DNA of 64,000 bases, from assembly GCA_964632215.1 (NCBI GenBank), contig CAZWBG010000001.1:174589-238588 (forward strand). Reading direction: 5' to 3'. Origin of the DNA: an uncultured Candidatus Saccharibacteria bacterium (GTDB lineage: Bacteria; Patescibacteriota; Saccharimonadia; Saccharimonadales; UBA7683). Positions 33,798-58,595 of this stretch are shown here, piece after piece (the first letter of the stretch is position 1; every line of letters starts with the position of its first letter). The notes beneath the pieces were generated by a model. That model saw only the letters and a list, made by a program, of their open reading frames with translations, was not told the DNA's origin and did not search any database. A program made the translations under genes and the position numbers.

Positions 33798-34382
33798 TTA
33801 TTTAGTGGATTTGGTGATAATTTTATCTACCAAGCCGTAATCAACTGATTCTTTAGCAGTCATCCAGTAGTCACGGTCAACGTCTCTTTCGATCTTTTTT
33901 AGTGTTTGCCCAGTATTTTTAGCTAGTATTTCATTTAAGTGATGCTTTAGAGCCAGGCCTTCTTTCAAATCAATCTCCATATCGGTAATTCTACCCTGTG
34001 TACCAGAAGAAGGTTGATGAATCATCGTCTTGCTGTTGGGCAGTACGAAGCGCTTGCCCTTGGCACCCGAGCTCAGTAAAAAGGCTCCCATACTGGCCTG
34101 CAAACCAATGCCAATTGTTTGCACGTCGCATGAAAGATACTGCATAGTGTCATAGATTGCCAAGCCGTCATATACATGACCGCCAGGGCTATTAATATAA
34201 AAGTAAATATCTTTTTTGGCATCATCGCTTTGTAAGAAAAGTAGCTGCGCCACGATTAAACCAGCGGTATGCTCGTTTACTTCGTCATGCAAAAAGATAA
34301 TGCGGTCACGTAGCAGACGGCTATAGATGTCGAAGGCGCGTTCTCCTTGTCCGGATGGTTCAATAACGGTTGGTACTAACAT
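33798..34382 (-). CDS. clpP: ATP-dependent Clp protease proteolytic subunit
   Basis: [18 protein letters not shown], active-site [11 protein letters not shown] and MIHQP. Confidence 0.97.
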
Positions 34383-34400
34383 GACCTTAGTGTAGTACGA

Positions 34401-34427
34401 TTAGCAGTCCTGCGTCAAGAGTGCTAA
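34401..34427 (-). promoter_or_regulatory. CIRCE-like HrcA operator overlapping the clpP promoter
   Basis: TTAGCAGTC-N9-GAGTGCTAA, which is 17 of 18 arm positions against the consensus TTAGCACTC-N9-GAGTGCTAA. On the minus strand the spacer begins with the -35-like TTGACG. Confidence 0.75.
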
Positions 34428-51729: not shown

Positions 51730-53073
51730 TTATGGTGTCAAATAGGTATTGAGCGCGTCGCGGATACTGGAAATCGGTTGGAGGAGTTTTGATTTTGTAT
51801 CTGCCCTTGGTCCGATTGCCGCCTTAAAACCAAGCTGATCTGCTTCCTTAAGACGCTTGTCTACGTGTGGTACATGGCGCACCTCGCCTGAGAGTCCTAC
51901 CTCTCCAAATACTACAGCATCTTTTTTCAGTTGCATACCCCTTGCAGCTGATGCTATGGCCATGCAAATAGCTAAATCTGCAGCTGGCTCGGTAATTTTA
52001 ATACCACCAACAATATTAATATAAATATCATACTCGCTCAGGTCTAGCTTTGTACGCCGTGTTAACACAGCGGCAAGCAAGTTAAGCCTGTTAAGATCAA
52101 AGCCAGATGCCGTGCGCTTTGGGTATCCAAATGATGTTTTATTTACCAACGCCTGCACCTCTACTAAAATTGGGCGAGTGCCTTCCATGGCCGCCAATAC
52201 AATAGAGCCGTCTGCCACCTGTCGCTCAGCTAGTAATAAGGCAGAAGGGTTATTTACCACTTCTAGGCCTTTTTCGGTCATATCAAAAATACCCACTTCA
52301 GCCGTTGAGCCATAACGATTCTTCACAGCACGCAGAACTTTAAAGCCACCATAGCGATCACCCTCAAGATTAATTACTACATCTACTAAATGTTCGAGTA
52401 GTTTTGGTCCGGCAATACTACCCTCTTTAGTAACGTGGCCGACAAGAATTAAGGTAGTTTTTGTCTGCTTAGCGGCCTGTGTTAATAAATAAGTACTGTT
52501 TGTAATTTGGCTTACGCTGCCAGGAGCTGATGACACAGCACTACACGAGATAGTTTGAATAGAATCAACTATCAGCACCTCGTAACCGCCCTCAAGCATT
52601 GTCTGGGCTATATCGTCACTACTCGTAGAGCTCGCAAGCATCACACCATGTTTACCCGAGGTAATACGACCCGAACGCAGACTAATCTGCTCGAGCGACT
52701 CCTCACCACTGACATACAGTACCTTGTACTGCGTTGCCAAATGAGCCGCTAATTGCATCAGGAGAGTACTCTTACCTATGCCTGGTTGGCCAGCAATTAA
52801 GTTCACGCTACCGCTCACAAAACCGCCACCTAGTACATTGTCGACATCTGCCACACCTGTTACCAGCCGAGTCGCCTTTTGGCTCTTGGTAATTTTACCA
52901 ACTTCAGTTGGCTTCAAGGCCGTACCCTTTACCGCAGCCAATGCTGCATCACGAGAGGCGGGCAGAGCTTCTACAAGACTATTCCAAGCACCACACACTG
53001 AACAGCGACCCGCCCATTTGCTATGGGAGGCACCACATTCTTGACACGTAAATTGCATTGTTTTTTTAGCCAT
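51730..53073 (-). CDS. radA: DNA repair protein RadA/Sms
   Basis: Zinc finger CQECGASHSKWAGRCSVCGAW, Walker A GQPGIGKST, and the KNRYG motif. Confidence 0.96.
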   Translation of the reverse strand: MAKKTMQFTCQECGASHSKWAGRCSVCGAWNSLVEALPASRDAALAAVKGTALKPTEVGKITKSQKATRLVTGVADVDNVLGGGFVSGSVNLIAGQPGIGKSTLLMQLAAHLATQYKVLYVSGEESLEQISLRSGRITSGKHGVMLASSTSSDDIAQTMLEGGYEVLIVDSIQTISCSAVSSAPGSVSQITNSTYLLTQAAKQTKTTLILVGHVTKEGSIAGPKLLEHLVDVVINLEGDRYGGFKVLRAVKNRYGSTAEVGIFDMTEKGLEVVNNPSALLLAERQVADGSIVLAAMEGTRPILVEVQALVNKTSFGYPKRTASGFDLNRLNLLAAVLTRRTKLDLSEYDIYINIVGGIKITEPAADLAICMAIASAARGMQLKKDAVVFGEVGLSGEVRHVPHVDKRLKEADQLGFKAAIGPRADTKSKLLQPISSIRDALNTYLTP

Positions 53074-53102: not shown

Positions 53103-54062
53103 CTAGAGTGACTGATAGTTGCTGTTAAGTTGCTGGACAAGTCTATTTTGAGCCGTTGCCAAACCATTTCGCTTTTCTACAATTTGGTTATAAGCGGTAA
53201 CTGTGTCTTTTAACTGACTTACATTCGCGTTATATGTCTGAATCAGTGCATTGTAGGCTGGCACAGCTGCGTTGTACTCACTAAGAGCGCCCTGGTTCTT
53301 AAGCGTTTCCAATTGGTTACGCTGTGTCTGAATCTGAGCCTGTTCGTACGCCAAAGTTGATTCAAGATCATCATTACTAATCTTCAAATCCATAAGCTGT
53401 TGGTCGTATGCTTTAATTTGTTGGTCTATATCAGTAAAGGTTTTCTCGTATTGCTGGGCATATGCAACGATTTTTTGCCTATCCTGAAAGTACACTTTGT
53501 AATGCTGCTCTAATTCTGGTGAAAGTTGGGCAACTTCAGTACCAAAAATTGAATGTAGTTCGTTAAGTACCTCGGTCGGTTCCGTTTTTTGATACAGCGC
53601 AATCGTGTCTCTCAGGCGTGGGTTAGTAATCTTCTTCTCCTCTGCCAAAAGTAGCTGATCGAGTTTTTTACGCTCACTAACCGAGAGTCGCTCGTAAGCT
53701 CCATGCAACATCTCATGAGCCGCCGTAACTTCTTTAACACCATTAAACTGCGGATCCTTTACATCATAGACATAAAACCGCTGAGCCGTGTAACAACCCA
53801 GGACAATACTTTGTTCGTGAGCTACATCGGCACAGGAAATATTGAATTTGTCGGCAGATTGAACCTCGGGCTGACTGGCTTTGTATATAAAACTGCCTTG
53901 ACTCGTCAAATCCAGCTTGTTCTCAAGTGCCGCAGCAGCGGGCTGCAAGGAACTGGTTCGTACAATGTATTGGTCTCGCATCCACTGCAGATTGAATAAA
54001 ATCAGCAGACCAACACCTACCAGAACCAATATACTCACCAATGGAAAAACTTTACGTTTCAT
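53103..54062 (-). CDS. Hypothetical membrane-anchored protein with an HExxH motif and a Q/N-rich coiled-coil C-terminus
   Basis: N-terminal TM helix (FPLVSILVLVGVGLLILF), TAAHEMLHGAYE, and a long heptad-like C-terminal half. Confidence 0.55.
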   Translation of the reverse strand: MKRKVFPLVSILVLVGVGLLILFNLQWMRDQYIVRTSSLQPAAAALENKLDLTSQGSFIYKASQPEVQSADKFNISCADVAHEQSIVLGCYTAQRFYVYDVKDPQFNGVKEVTAAHEMLHGAYERLSVSERKKLDQLLLAEEKKITNPRLRDTIALYQKTEPTEVLNELHSIFGTEVAQLSPELEQHYKVYFQDRQKIVAYAQQYEKTFTDIDQQIKAYDQQLMDLKISNDDLESTLAYEQAQIQTQRNQLETLKNQGALSEYNAAVPAYNALIQTYNANVSQLKDTVTAYNQIVEKRNGLATAQNRLVQQLNSNYQSL

Positions 54063-54084: not shown

Positions 54085-56583
54085 CTAGCCAAGTACAGGT
54101 GTGGCAGAGGTAGTACTAAAGATTAGTTCATCTTTTTTAGTGTTCACCACAATCACATTATGGTCTTTGTACGTACCTTTTAGTAGATTTTCTGCCAAAT
54201 AATCCTCAACTTCGTCCTGCAGTACTCGCCGCAAGCTTCTGACACCTGTTTGAGCGTTATAGCCCTTGTTTAGTAGCCATTTTTTAGCATTTACGTGAAT
54301 CTGTAAAGACAGTTTGTGCTGAGCTATAAGTCGGTCATTTAACTCAGCTATCTGTAGATCTAGCACCTTACGTGCCTCAGCCGTCGTTAACGCTCGGAAG
54401 ACGACGATCTTGTCTATACGGTTAATGAGCTCTGGGCGCATCGTTTCCTTTAGCTCTTCCATCACGCGTTCTTTATTGTGCTCGTGTAGTTCGTCTAGAT
54501 CATTCAGCTCGCTCTTGCTCTCCGCTCTAAATCCCATCACCGATTCACGCCTAAGGCTATCAGCACCCACATTACCAGTCATAATAATAACGGTATTGGT
54601 AAAATCAACCTGGCGACCCTTAGCGTCAGTTAAAATACCATCTTCAAGGATTTGCAGCAGCATATTAAAGATATCGGGGTGAGCTTTTTCAATCTCGTCT
54701 AAAAGAATTAAGCTATACGGGTTACGTCTTACTTTATCTGTTAATTGCCCACCTTCGTCATAACCTACGTAGCCCGCAGGCGCACCGACAAGCCGAGAGG
54801 CCGTGTGACGCTCACTAAATTCACTCATATCAATTTTAATCAGCGAGTCTTCACGTTCATATAATTCACGAGCCAGAACACGAGCTAATTCAGTTTTACC
54901 AACACCCGTTGGACCCAGGAAGATGAAAGAGCCAATTGGCCGACGGCGATCGCTAATTCCCGAACGATTACGGCGAATAGCTCGGGCTACCGTATTAAGA
55001 GCTTCGGTCTGCCCAATAACTGAACGGGCCAACTGCTTCTCTAGCGCGAGCAAGTAACCAGCTTCCCGCTTCAAAATACGCTGCGTCGGTATTCCGGTAA
55101 TCAGCGAGACAGTACTCGCTAAATCTTGCTCAGTCATCATTAATTTGGTGCGAGTTTTATGACGCTTCTTCTCAAGCTGCGTATCAAGCTCAGCCAACTT
55201 TACCTTATGACGAGCTGCAGCTTCAAAATTCTCATGGCCAACTGCTTCTTCCATACGTTGGCGAGTGAGCTTAATTTCTTTAAGTAGTTGACGCTGAGAT
55301 TGAGGCACCTTAGCCCGCTCTACTCGAATATGTGCAGCTGTTTCATCTAATAAGTCGAGTGCTTTGTCTGGCATAAAACGCTCGTTCATATAGCGGTCAC
55401 TCAGGTACACGGTTTTTTCCACGACTTCATCTTCAATCTTAATATTATGATGAAGTTCATAACTTGGCTTTAAGCCTTTTAGTATCTCGACAGTCTCCTG
55501 AATACTCGGAGGGTGAACGTGAACTGTCTGGAAACGCCTATCTAACGCTGCATCTTTTTCAATGCTTTTCTGATACTCGTCAATAGTCGTAGCACCAATA
55601 ACACGCATAGTTCCACGGGCCAAGACTGGTTTTAGAATATTAGCAGCATCTAAAGCACCTTCGGCAGCTCCAGCACCAACTAGTAAGTGAATTTCATCAA
55701 TAAATACAATAACTCTGTCATCATGTGCAACCTCCTGCATAATTGCCTTGAGTCGTTCTTCAAACTCACCGCGATATTTTGTACCAGCAATCATACCCGC
55801 AAGATCAAGCATAATCACTCGTTTATCGAGTAAGTTCTCAGGAACCTTTTCAGCAACAATATGCTGGGCTAAACCTTCAACTATGGCAGTCTTACCAACA
55901 CCGGGTTCACCGATTAAAATAGGGTTATTTTTGGTACGTCGAGAAAGAATCGTAATCACGCGCTGCAACTCTTTGCGCCGCCCGATAACAGGGTCAAGCC
56001 TACCTTTTTTTGCTTCTTCCGTTAAGTCTGTACCGAAGTAGTCAAGCGCACTTTTACCTGATTTGCTCTTTTGCTGGGTTGCTTGCGTAGAACCATCAGC
56101 TTCACCTTCATACTCAAAGCGTTGTTGGTTTAAATACGTCTCTAACTCAACCGTTAATTCTTCAACATTAATATTCATGTCACGCAGGAGCACATTCGCT
56201 CGAGCATTCTTTTGAATCAAAATACTATAGAGAATATGCTCAGTACCACAATATTCCTGCTGGAATTCTCGTGCGATCTCCCAACTGGTTCGTAGTGTTA
56301 ACTTTGCAGCTTCACTCAGGCCCTTGCTGTTGCCAATACTTATAACGAGTGTTTTAGGTGTTAATTTCAAAGCCGTGCGTGCTCGATCGAGCGTTACGCC
56401 AGAAGTTTCGAGCAACTTAGCACCGATAGAGGAGTCTTGACTAAGAACACCTAATAAGATGTGTTCTGTACCGATATACGAGCTACCCAGGTTACGCGAA
56501 ATGGTTTCAGCCTGCTGCAAACTGGACCGAGCATTTTCAGTCAGTCGGTTGAGAAACTCGTTAAAATCACGACTTGTCTGCAT
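54085..56583 (-). CDS. clpC: ATP-dependent Clp protease ATP-binding subunit ClpC
   Basis: Clp_N repeats, two AAA+ modules ([16 protein letters not shown]), and a UVR-like linker. Confidence 0.96.
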
Positions 56584-56632
56584 ATGGCTATTGTACTCCT
56601 ACTGAGAATGATATTCGATATCCCATAACCCC

Positions 56633-56675
56633 ATTATACTAATTTAGCACTCCTCATACAAGAGTGCTAAATTAG
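56633..56675 (-). promoter_or_regulatory. Perfect CIRCE (HrcA operator) embedded in the clpC promoter
   Basis: TTAGCACTC (56644-56652), N9, GAGTGCTAA (56662-56670), extended to a 14-bp perfect inverted repeat at 56639-56675. The minus strand reads CTAATTTAGCACTC-TTGTATGAG-GAGTGCTAAATTAG-TATAAT, giving -35 TTGTAT, a 17-nt spacer and -10 TATAAT. Confidence 0.85.
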
Positions 56676-56676
56676 A

Positions 56677-57207
56677 TCAATCATCAAAGTCTGGTTCGGC
56701 CAGGAACTTCGCTGGTGACCTACGCTCGCCAGTCCACCCATCTCTGCTGTAGAAGTATTTGTCTTCAAGATAATCTCTTCTCAACCCGCCGAAGTTGCCG
56801 AGTATCCAGCCAGGAAAGTCGGCCTGATCAAAATAGCACATCGCCCTCTCTACATATTCTAGGCTTCCACCTTCGATAGACTCTTCTGCTAGATCATCGA
56901 GAGCAGATAAAAAGTTTAGGCTTCTTGCCTGAGGCCCAAGCCTATCACTGGCATCCTCATGCATCACCTGTAATACAACCGGCACAATATTGACATATAT
57001 TTCATCAGAAGCTTCGGATAGGGCAATTCTTAGAATTGATCGGTGCAGGTGTCCACCCCAGCTCTCAGCCAGCTCTGCCCAGACCCATTCCTCCTCTACC
57101 ACATCTCGCATAAAGTCGCGGCACTCGCCAACTGTTACGAAGTGTACTGGAGTTGAGTCTCTGTTTCGCCATATAGATGAGTCAAACTCTGTGGCCGGGA
57201 TCTCCAT
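56677..57207 (-). CDS. Hypothetical protein (176 aa) co-oriented directly downstream of nusA
   Basis: The ORF-track start at 57243 overlaps nusA. ATG at 57207 lies 7 nt after the nusA TAA. No family recognised. Confidence 0.55.
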   Translation of the reverse strand: MEIPATEFDSSIWRNRDSTPVHFVTVGECRDFMRDVVEEEWVWAELAESWGGHLHRSILRIALSEASDEIYVNIVPVVLQVMHEDASDRLGPQARSLNFLSALDDLAEESIEGGSLEYVERAMCYFDQADFPGWILGNFGGLRRDYLEDKYFYSRDGWTGERRSPAKFLAEPDFDD

Positions 57208-57214
57208 ACAACTC

Positions 57215-58480
57215 TTATTCGCCGTGTTCTTCGATCGCTCCAAGTAAACCGGCTTCGACTTCGTCTCGACGCTTTAGCTTCTTAGGCTTTGTTGATACAG
57301 GCGCTGTTTTTACAGGGACCTTTTCTTTATTCTCTTCTTTTTCTTCCTTTACTACTTCAACCACAGGAGCCTCCTCTACAATTATTTCTTCAATTACTGT
57401 CTCTGTCGGAGCTTCAACAACCTCAGGCTTAGCAGCTGCTGATGTACCAGATTCGATATCTAGCTCATAACCAGTTAGCTTACTCGCAAGACGTACATTC
57501 TGTCCACCCTTACCAATAGCGATTGAAAGCTGACTCTGGTCCACTATGACACGAGCATGCTTCTGGTCGTTATTAAGTTCTACACGAATAACCTCGGTAG
57601 GAGAAAGAGCGTTCTTAATGTAAGTCGCAAGATCTTCAGCCCATGTAATGATGTCTATCTTTTCTTGGTCGCCAATTTCATTCATGACTGCTTGCACGCG
57701 AGTACCGTGCCCACCAACAAATGTACCAACTGGGTCTACGCCAGGTACGGTTGAGGCAACTGCGATCTTTGTACGCATACCAGCTTGTCGAGCAATGCCC
57801 TTTATTTCTACAGCACCACTTTCCATTTCTGGCACTTCCTGTCTGAAGAGGTATTCAATAAACTGTTCATTAGAACGTGAAAGTATCAGCTGCGGGCCTC
57901 GATTGCTGCGTTCTACATCTTTCAAGAAGACCTTCAAGCGAGCGCCTACGCCGTAATATTCACCCGGTATCTGCTCACTAGCAGGCAAGATACCACTTGC
58001 TTTACCAAGGTCGATACGCACAAGACGGCTTTCTACACGCTGGACCGTACCAACAATGACTGTACCAATTTTATCTTCATATTCAGTTAAGATAATTTCT
58101 CTCTCAGCCTCGCGTAGACGCTGTAAGATCACCTGCTTAGCAGTTTGTGCAGCAACACGGCCAAAAGTGGTAGGATGCTCTTCAATATCTATTACATCAC
58201 CCAGCTTGGCATCTTTCTTATATTTGCTAGCCTGTGAGACGGTCATTTGCTGTGCATCATTTTCAACATCTTCTACAACATCGTAGCTCGTGATGGCTGT
58301 TAGGTCGCCTGTATTAGAGTTAAGTGAAACAGCTACATTCTGCTCGCGCTCACCAAAGTCTTTACGGTAAGCTGCCGCAAGTGCCTGCTCTACAGCTTCG
58401 TGCACTACATCTTCCGGTAGGTTCTTCTCGTCTGCAATTTGCTTAATTGCCAAAATAAGTTGTTTGATTTGTAGTTCCAT
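57215..58480 (-). CDS. nusA: Transcription termination/antitermination factor NusA (with charged C-terminal tail)
   Basis: S1 and KH domains (GGQNVRLASKLTG) and an N-terminal RNAP-binding domain. Confidence 0.95.
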   Translation of the reverse strand: MELQIKQLILAIKQIADEKNLPEDVVHEAVEQALAAAYRKDFGEREQNVAVSLNSNTGDLTAITSYDVVEDVENDAQQMTVSQASKYKKDAKLGDVIDIEEHPTTFGRVAAQTAKQVILQRLREAEREIILTEYEDKIGTVIVGTVQRVESRLVRIDLGKASGILPASEQIPGEYYGVGARLKVFLKDVERSNRGPQLILSRSNEQFIEYLFRQEVPEMESGAVEIKGIARQAGMRTKIAVASTVPGVDPVGTFVGGHGTRVQAVMNEIGDQEKIDIITWAEDLATYIKNALSPTEVIRVELNNDQKHARVIVDQSQLSIAIGKGGQNVRLASKLTGYELDIESGTSAAAKPEVVEAPTETVIEEIIVEEAPVVEVVKEEKEENKEKVPVKTAPVSTKPKKLKRRDEVEAGLLGAIEEHGE

Positions 58481-58595
58481 TTTGTTTCCTTTCAGTTATT
58501 ACTATAATCAGTTCTATCGCATGAAAATTACATGAAAAAGGCCGACCACATGGCCGGACTACTTGTAGTATATTCCATCTACCTGGCTGTGTCAA

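Follow-up and report, generated by a model that had tools for sequence, protein, structure and literature searches.

The CIRCE/HrcA system of Bacillus subtilis, which controls hrcA-grpE-dnaK-dnaJ and groESL, has the operator consensus TTAGCACTC-N9-GAGTGCTAA, identical to a site that we describe here upstream of clpC in a genome of Saccharibacteria. As in B. subtilis, hrcA of Saccharibacteria is the first gene of an hrcA-grpE-dnaK cluster with a CIRCE in the autoregulatory position, and the genes predicted to be repressed are genes of proteostasis. Unlike in the B. subtilis HrcA system, the predicted targets in Saccharibacteria include clpC and clpP, and HrcA is ~105 residues shorter. The arrangement of operator and promoter also differs: in Bacillus, CIRCE sits between the promoter and the start codon, whereas in Saccharibacteria it is interleaved with the promoter, the -35 element lying in the operator spacer. 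In Bacillus, clpC and clpP form a separate CtsR regulon (PMC6305308). The Firmicute CtsR regulon (ctsR-mcsA-mcsB-clpC-radA, clpP, and clpE) has an output equivalent to the one predicted here, stress-inducible clpC and clpP, and radA follows clpC in both, but the repressor and operator are different, and no heptad direct repeat above chance level was recognized in the window (the whole 64-kb stretch of Saccharibacteria DNA that we analyzed).

The closest functional parallel to HrcA control of the Clp protease in Saccharibacteria is Mycoplasma pneumoniae, in which HrcA controls dnaK, dnaJ, groESL, and clpB in addition to lon, pepA, and pip (PMC7737663). One HrcA thus presides over chaperones and proteases in the small genomes of M. 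pneumoniae and M. genitalium, as we predict for Saccharibacteria, and the position of M. pneumoniae lon behind tig with its own CIRCE (PMC7737663) is paralleled in the window by the order tig-orf117-CIRCE-clpP. The ATP-dependent proteases of M. pneumoniae are Lon and FtsH, with no ClpC/ClpP pair as far as PMC7737663 describes; the system considered here differs in that the protease predicted to be under HrcA control is ClpCP, the phylum is Saccharibacteria (CPR), and HrcA is short. Control of a Clp peptidase gene by HrcA has a precedent in Streptococcus salivarius, where, as cited in PMC6305308, clpP is under dual control by CtsR and HrcA (Chastanet and Msadek 2003). A CIRCE upstream of clpP is thus common to both systems; CtsR co-regulates the gene in S. 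salivarius according to that citation, whereas the window holds no ctsR and no CtsR box at the clp genes, and clpC is included in the predicted control as well.

The clpC gene lies in the order nusA-orf144-CIRCE-clpC-orf319-radA-orf270, and the genes that bear on the analysis are as follows.

54085-56583, minus strand: clpC, 832 aa, assigned by Pfam and NCBIfam matches and by its translation.
53103-54062, minus strand: orf319, beginning 22 nt after clpC; predicted to be membrane-anchored, with an HExxH motif.
51730-53073, minus strand: radA/sms, beginning 29 nt after orf319.
56677-57111, minus strand: orf144, a hypothetical ORF upstream of clpC, annotated with 144 aa in public assemblies.

By all of the family features considered in its predicted product, the ORF at 54085-56583 is a ClpC-type Hsp100. 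Its Pfam architecture consists of two Clp_N domains, AAA, AAA_lid_9, AAA_2, and D2-small, and its NCBIfam scores for the ClpB and ClpA equivalogs fall under their cut-offs. The translation also contains two hallmarks of ClpC, namely a UVR-like middle domain of short length and, within ESVMGFRAE, the MGF loop for docking to ClpP. The closest ClpC proteins from named genomes are 72–77% identical, and all of them come from Saccharibacteria or Saccharimonadales MAGs. Of the neighboring ORFs, orf319 has no Pfam or NCBIfam match, and orf144, which also has no family matches, is present in only some relatives. The latter would be 188 aa long if started from an upstream TTG. Downstream of clpC the successive gaps are 22, 29, and 24 nt with no intergenic terminators, suggesting that the transcript runs through orf319 and radA and perhaps orf270; orf319 is probably co-transcribed with clpC, and radA probably belongs to the same transcription unit.

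Between orf144 and clpC we recognized an operator and a promoter that occupy the same stretch of DNA.

56644-56670, no strand: CIRCE core, the predicted HrcA operator of clpC; 18/18, kept in relatives.
56639-56675, no strand: extended 14-bp perfect inverted repeat, read from the sequence.
56656-56661, minus strand: -35-like TTGTAT, the first six bases of the spacer, placed by the TTGnnn rule.
56633-56638, minus strand: -10 element TATAAT; TAnnnT at 16–18 nt in all relatives.
56584-56632, minus strand: predicted clpC 5' leader, with transcription probably starting near 56626.

The CIRCE core, TTAGCACTC-CTCATACAA-GAGTGCTAA, agrees with the consensus at 18 of 18 arm positions, its two 9-bp half-sites (TTAGCACTC and GAGTGCTAA) being separated by a spacer of exactly 9 nt, and CTAAT/ATTAG flanks widen it into the 14-bp perfect repeat; in relatives the repeat usually extends beyond the CIRCE arms by AA/TT only. 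Read on the clpC (minus) strand, the region is CTAATTTAGCACTC-TTGTATGAG-GAGTGCTAAATTAG-TATAAT, where TTGTATGAG is the spacer, and TTGTAT (56661-56656) is followed after exactly 17 nt by TATAAT (56638-56633). This -10 element is perfect and starts 5 nt after the right CIRCE arm. The -35 element agrees with TTGACA at only three of six positions, which accounts for the absence of the clpC promoter from the list returned by a generic promoter scanner. A Shine-Dalgarno sequence, AGGAG (56600-56596), precedes the ATG at 56583, 49 nt separate the -10 element from the ATG, and the distance of the CIRCE upstream of that ATG is given as 74 nt. On the other side, the upstream ORF closes with a stop codon whose last base, 56677, is 2 nt away from the inverted repeat. 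An earlier note on this DNA had described the same arrangement, namely a perfect CIRCE extended to a 14-bp repeat, TTGTAT and TATAAT 17 nt apart on the clpC strand, and a repeat that begins 2 nt after the upstream stop, and on each of these points its reading held.

We propose that the inverted repeat is very probably a functional CIRCE operator for HrcA, fused with a sigma-70-type clpC promoter. The earlier note had suggested a genome-wide search for further CIRCE copies and a comparison of clpC upstream regions among relatives. When the 64-kb window was searched with the CIRCE pattern, allowing up to 3 mismatches, two matches were found against a chance expectation of 0.03 matches per window: the clpC site and one more copy, absent from the earlier note, at the promoter of clpP. 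Further degenerate candidates, two matches at 5 mismatches, were at the level expected by chance and were rejected. A scan of the whole window against Rfam returned one tRNA only; the clpC, clpP, and nusA leaders matched none of the known RNA families.

34401-34427, no strand: second CIRCE, the predicted HrcA operator of clpP; 17/18, one mismatch.
34389-34418, minus strand: clpP promoter, with TTGACG (34418-34413) in the spacer, 18 nt, and TACACT (34394-34389).
33798-34382, minus strand: clpP, 194 aa; PF00574, E = 1.5e-77.

On the clpP strand the second CIRCE reads TTAGCACTC-TTGACGCAG-GACTGCTAA, and the promoter embedded in it, TTGACG-18-TACACT, was also called by an independent promoter scanner. 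The clpP ATG follows the -10 element TACACT by 6 nt, which implies a leaderless clpP mRNA, and the CIRCE lies 18 nt upstream of the ATG. Its context, tig-orf117-CIRCE-clpP, places the CIRCE 7 nt after an upstream stop. The two cassettes are 22 kb apart in the window, and both parts of the ClpCP protease carry one.

The association of CIRCE with clpC extends across Saccharibacteria. We fetched 80 clpC loci by protein similarity only and then scanned their upstream regions for CIRCE. A copy with at most 2 mismatches was located ahead of clpC or nusA-clpC at every one of the 16 named Saccharibacteria loci with upstream sequence, and at 0 of 63 loci from other phyla (Planctomycetota, Nitrospirota, Cyanobacteria, Clostridia, Omnitrophota, and others). 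The clpC CIRCE has been kept at orthologous positions while the ClpC proteins themselves are only 47–77% identical. At eleven of the Saccharibacteria loci the CIRCE is 17–133 nt from the aligned clpC start; at the other five (L013-L017), which belong to one clade, the only CIRCE precedes nusA, and clpC comes directly after nusA. For clpP we picked four homologues on protein identity (75–88%) and the length of the contig alone, and all four have the cassette directly upstream. The annotated TTG start of one sampled clpP homologue is actually the -35 element inside the CIRCE spacer. Syntenic loci were also present in a scan of metagenomes described below, one for clpC (L111) and two for clpP (L154 and L195).

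From the geometry given in the earlier note we defined a promoter rule as TTGnnn starting at an offset of +7 to +15 within the 27-bp CIRCE, followed after 16–18 nt by TAnnnT. This rule is satisfied at 18 of 18 independently sampled sites (2 in the window and 16 in relatives), compared with 1.15% of arbitrary positions in the same loci, and at all 18 sites the promoter faces the gene even though CIRCE itself is palindromic. In some relatives the -35 element is found where the spacer ends, and a G-to-C substitution in the opening base of the right arm completes it (cTTGAC-AGTGCTAA); this substitution explains the commonest 'mismatch' to the CIRCE consensus. In several relatives the start codon is found 6–9 nt after the -10 element, a distance that is sensible only if transcription begins there.

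These data bear on one alternative, namely that the HrcA site is real and the clpC promoter lies elsewhere, for instance at the nusA promoter (58595-58567), with bound HrcA acting as a roadblock to read-through. The weakness of the local -35 element (3/6) would fit such a scheme, as would the co-directional arrangement of nusA, orf144, and clpC with no canonical terminator before clpC, and the clade L013-L017, in which the sole CIRCE lies ahead of nusA and clpC stands right behind that gene. We nevertheless consider it unlikely, given the occurrence of TAnnnT 16–18 nt after a spacer TTG at 18 of 18 sites against a background of 1.15%, the perfect TATAAT in the window, and the clpC ATG located 6 nt after the -10 element in several relatives, where only a local start is sensible. 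The nusA promoter comes with a leader hairpin of its own, which includes a T-run. Under our preferred reading, an operator fused with a clpC promoter, some clpC mRNA may still come from read-through from the nusA promoter, and the local promoter is maybe not the sole source.

A second alternative is that the repeat works primarily in RNA, either as an intrinsic terminator or by stabilizing the 3' end of the orf144/nusA transcript, and that its match to CIRCE is secondary. Folded as RNA, the repeat is very stable (-27.7 kcal/mol over 81 nt, z = -5.2), it begins 2 nt after the upstream stop, and the clpP copy likewise follows an upstream stop by 7 nt. The 3' flank, UAUAAUGGGG, contains no U-tract, however, and the terminator scan made no call at the repeat. 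To compare the arms we aligned 24 sites from clpC, nusA-clpC, clpP, and hrcA promoters. Twelve of the arm positions show no variation, nor do five of the nine pairs, and the changes that do occur comprise 11 pair-breaking single changes and 0 compensatory ones; this conservation of the bases rather than of the pairing points to base-specific protein-DNA recognition. The spacer, which would be the loop of a hairpin, holds the conserved TTGnnn in fixed register with the -10 element, and the upstream neighbor varies or is absent in relatives while the element always tracks the start of clpC, clpP, or hrcA. We regard a primarily RNA-level role as very unlikely, and we rejected the intrinsic terminator reading for lack of a U-tract and of covariation. 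The additional role as terminator or RNA stabilizer that the earlier note suggested is thus not supported at the 24 sites compared, although the repeat may serve as a minor 3' stabilizing hairpin on upstream transcripts that read through.

If the repeat is a DNA operator, the question is which regulator binds it. Family searches of the 64-kb window detected none of hrcA, ctsR, groES/EL, or dnaK, and ctsR, mcsA, and mcsB are absent upstream of clpC, where nusA and a hypothetical ORF are found instead. The organism belongs to Saccharibacteria and not to Firmicutes, and its phylogenetic position therefore gives no reason to expect CtsR. A search of the whole window for CtsR boxes (the tandem heptad RGTCAAA-NAN-RGTCAAA, 3 mismatches allowed) gave 10 matches where 8.1 were expected, none of them upstream of clpC or clpP. 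With the search at chance level, the view that no CtsR-type heptad repeat is present at clpC, also taken from the earlier note, was confirmed.

Candidates for the cognate repressor came from the metagenome scan, in which CIRCE with a TTG at the start of the spacer was sought and 120 loci of mixed origin were collected. The genes downstream were hrcA (27), dnaK (10), groES (8), dnaJ (7), Hsp100 genes (6, including clpC), htpG (4), a small zinc-ribbon protein (4), clpP (3), and hsp20 (2). Because the scan itself required the TTG, we did not count it as evidence for the spacer TTG, for which loci retrieved through protein homology served exclusively. One HrcA from this set matched both HrcA Pfam domains, PF03444 and PF01628, the latter only from model position ~72–106 onward. 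It has thousands of short relatives of ~236 aa, several of which are labeled 'transcriptional regulator [Candidatus Saccharibacteria bacterium]' by NCBI. The Saccharibacteria hrcA genes are found in hrcA-grpE-dnaK-dnaJ clusters and are preceded by a CIRCE with an embedded promoter and by another, weaker CIRCE immediately ahead of the start codon. The placement of hrcA clusters behind the same type of cassette as clpC and clpP suggests that Saccharibacteria have an autoregulated HrcA. The condition set in the earlier note, the existence of an hrcA gene, is thus satisfied at the level of the phylum.

Aligned with HrcAs of 343–357 aa, the short HrcA shows one clean internal gap of ~105 residues and retains, besides the winged helix, the two halves of the C-terminal domain; the full three-domain architecture of ~340-aa HrcAs, with its inserted middle domain, was not found in it. 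The missing segment presumably corresponds to the inserted dimerizing domain of the Thermotoga maritima structure. The winged helix corresponds to that of T. maritima HrcA (1STZ; E = 1.8e-21, residues 16–99), and in the profile search against PDB sequences it was the only domain that aligned to 1STZ. An AlphaFold2 model of the short HrcA built from a 34-sequence alignment was poor, with a mean pLDDT of 47. That the short HrcA is a dimeric CIRCE binder is assumed here from its co-occurrence with the operator.

The size of this protein invites the alternative that a regulator other than HrcA is responsible, either because the short CPR 'HrcA' has lost CIRCE binding or because another protein has taken over the motif. 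The absence of ~105 internal residues from Saccharibacteria HrcA, and the NCBI name of the short protein, which is just 'transcriptional regulator', can be read in this way. The winged helix is nevertheless well conserved with that of T. maritima HrcA, both HrcA Pfam domains are detected, and the operator arms match the consensus of Firmicutes exactly. Moreover, the gene occupies the canonical hrcA-grpE-dnaK position with a CIRCE ahead of it, the classic autoregulatory layout, and we hold replacement of HrcA by another regulator to be extremely unlikely. A chance palindrome or a decaying relic with no present function has negligible probability, given a perfect 18/18 match where 0.03 matches are expected per window and its conservation at orthologous positions across ClpC proteins that are 47–77% identical.

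With HrcA as the regulator of an operator fused with the clpC promoter, the geometry of the cassette suggests how repression could work. The -35 element occupies the 9-nt spacer between the half-sites, and the promoter-proximal half-site fills the gap between the -35 and -10 elements. An HrcA dimer seated on both arms would therefore be predicted to cover the -35 element together with the spacer DNA and keep RNA polymerase off the promoter, an occlusion that we predict because the half-sites flank the -35 element and fill the -35/-10 spacer. An accumulation of unfolded proteins would be expected to make HrcA inactive and so to relieve the repression of clpC, and probably of orf319 and radA with it. 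The stress signal would follow the GroEL-titration model of B. subtilis, in which GroEL is titrated under proteotoxic stress, HrcA becomes inactive, and the regulon is derepressed (Mogk et al. 1997, cited in PMC7737663). The sequence, its geometry, and its conservation are observed; that HrcA binds and occludes the promoter, which signal releases it, where transcription starts, and how far the clpC operon reaches are what we infer.

Taken together, the Clp protease of Saccharibacteria appears to be part of the HrcA regulon and not of a CtsR- or ClgR-type regulon. The core of the earlier note, an operator built into the clpC promoter and a Clp machinery drawn into the HrcA regulon, is thereby supported comparatively, by the cassette at clpP in the window, at 16 of 16 clpC loci and 4 of 4 clpP homologues, and at hrcA itself. 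Its accompanying remark that some reduced-genome bacteria have proteases under HrcA fits the control of lon, clpB, pepA, and pip in M. pneumoniae (PMC7737663). Both clpC and clpP would be new regulon members of a textbook repressor-operator pair, of which the repressor, the operator, and the logic are already known, and the regulatory site itself is real, strongly conserved, and mechanistically unsurprising. Full-text searches for literature linking HrcA or CIRCE with Saccharibacteria, Patescibacteria, or the candidate phyla radiation found no relevant paper.

Most Saccharibacteria and other CPR bacteria live as epibionts and are uncultured, and their genomes measure ~0.7–1 Mb. To our knowledge, almost nothing is known about transcriptional regulation in these organisms, and we know of no mapped promoters in the phylum Saccharibacteria. 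The cassette would give a usable promoter annotation for such genomes, with -35 and -10 positions and likely leaderless starts, and it exposes mis-annotated gene starts, for example where the TTG called as a start is a -35 element. It also yields a phylum-wide prediction, that HrcA regulates ClpC and ClpP jointly with the chaperones.

A broader proposal goes beyond the Clp protease, and here our confidence is evenly balanced between acceptance and doubt. It holds that one minimal HrcA, lacking the inserted domain of ~105 residues, runs nearly the whole cytosolic proteostasis network in Saccharibacteria, and probably in many CPR/Patescibacteria, comprising DnaK-DnaJ-GrpE, GroES/EL, ClpC, ClpP, and, in one clade, NusA. 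It would do so through a standard cassette with the -35 element in the CIRCE spacer and a start codon often 6–10 nt after the -10 element, giving leaderless mRNAs. If this is true, the short HrcA would be a naturally occurring means of asking whether binding to CIRCE as a dimer, or the sensing of GroEL, depends on the inserted domain. The parallel with the independent consolidation in Mycoplasma suggests that genome reduction repeatedly folds the control of proteases into the HrcA circuit, and the minimal-HrcA network, if true, would represent a heat-shock circuit of distinct and streamlined design in bacteria of ultra-small size.

Besides the CIRCE (the predicted operator of the heat-shock repressor HrcA) interleaved with the clpC promoter, a second CIRCE in the window, with one mismatch and not mentioned in the initial note, is embedded in the promoter of clpP:

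34389-34427, window: clpP promoter with CIRCE, TTGACG-18-TACACT
33798-34382, window: clpP
1488-1514, clpP homologue locus L217: CIRCE, which contains the annotated clpP start, 1501

The ATG of the window clpP lies only 6 nt past the predicted -10, which implies that its mRNA would be leaderless. In L217, the public gene call begins clpP at a TTG inside the CIRCE spacer, giving a protein of 208 aa versus about 194; this TTG is the -35 hexamer, and the start is an annotation artefact exposed by the interleaved arrangement of operator and promoter. Many other CIRCE promoters place the start codon 6-10 nt past the predicted -10:

clpC loci of relatives: L003, L005, L006, L007, L011 and L018
clpP homologue loci: L211-L216
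hrcA and dnaJ loci: several from CPR

This recurrent spacing suggests, from promoter predictions, that leaderless heat-shock mRNAs are common in Saccharibacteria and other CPR. In the window clpC, by contrast, 49 nt that include an AGGAG Shine-Dalgarno sequence separate the -10 from the ATG. A small palindrome, GATAT-CGA-ATATC (56605-56617, minus strand), precedes the Shine-Dalgarno sequence in this predicted 5' leader, downstream of the -10, and may be there by chance.

The promoters of dnaK and hrcA carry two tandem CIRCEs, the first interleaved with the promoter and a weaker second copy (such as TTGGCACTC..., or TTAGCAAAC-N9-GAGTGATAA) downstream of the -10; those of clpC and clpP have only the promoter-interleaved copy. 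The tandem loci were the following:

dnaK: L086, L127, L128, L134 and L169
hrcA: L203, 7973-7999, and L206, 9971-9997

The HrcA of Saccharibacteria and other CPR is itself short, at ~217-245 aa. Relative to HrcAs of 343-357 aa, it lacks one cleanly delimited internal segment of about 105 residues and keeps the winged helix as well as the two halves of the C-terminal domain; the part removed is probably the inserted dimerising domain. Examples, all outside the window, are listed below, and include proteins P0049 and P0099:

L166: short HrcA
L203, 8001-8708: short HrcA
L206, 10001-10717: short HrcA

NCBI names these proteins merely 'transcriptional regulator', and the AF2 model of the short form reached a pLDDT of only 47.

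In non-CPR metagenome contigs of high-GC or mixed taxa (L095, L100, L165 and L200), the first gene behind the CIRCE promoter was repeatedly a small FmdB-like zinc-ribbon protein (MPTYEYxCxxC...), possibly a little-noticed member of the HrcA regulon.

Downstream of clpC, one further gene precedes radA:

53103-54062, window, minus strand: orf319, hypothetical protein

It encodes an N-terminal transmembrane helix, a metalloprotease-like HEMLH (HExxH) motif and a long, Q/N-rich, coiled-coil-like C-terminal tail, and had no Pfam or NCBIfam match. Its placement between clpC and radA is kept in most Saccharibacteria loci at 32-52% identity, and it is probably co-transcribed with clpC.

On the other side of clpC lies nusA:

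58535-58595, window, minus strand: nusA upstream region with promoter and hairpin
57215-58480, window, minus strand: nusA

A strong promoter (TTGACA-17-TATACT) is followed, about 55 nt ahead of the ATG, by a hairpin, CCGGCC-ATGT-GGTCGG, with a T-run. The pattern TCCGGCC...GGTCGG...TTTTT is also kept in L003, L012 and L111, and an analogous hairpin occurs in L013-L017, the clpC loci of one Saccharibacteria clade. The hairpin had no Rfam match; it is a likely transcription attenuator, possibly serving NusA autoregulation. In L013-L017, a CIRCE-embedded promoter precedes both nusA and its leader hairpin (CIRCE at 2514, 2514, 2514, 2459 and 1156, respectively), and clpC follows directly after nusA without a CIRCE of its own. 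HrcA in this clade would co-regulate the transcription factor NusA with ClpC.
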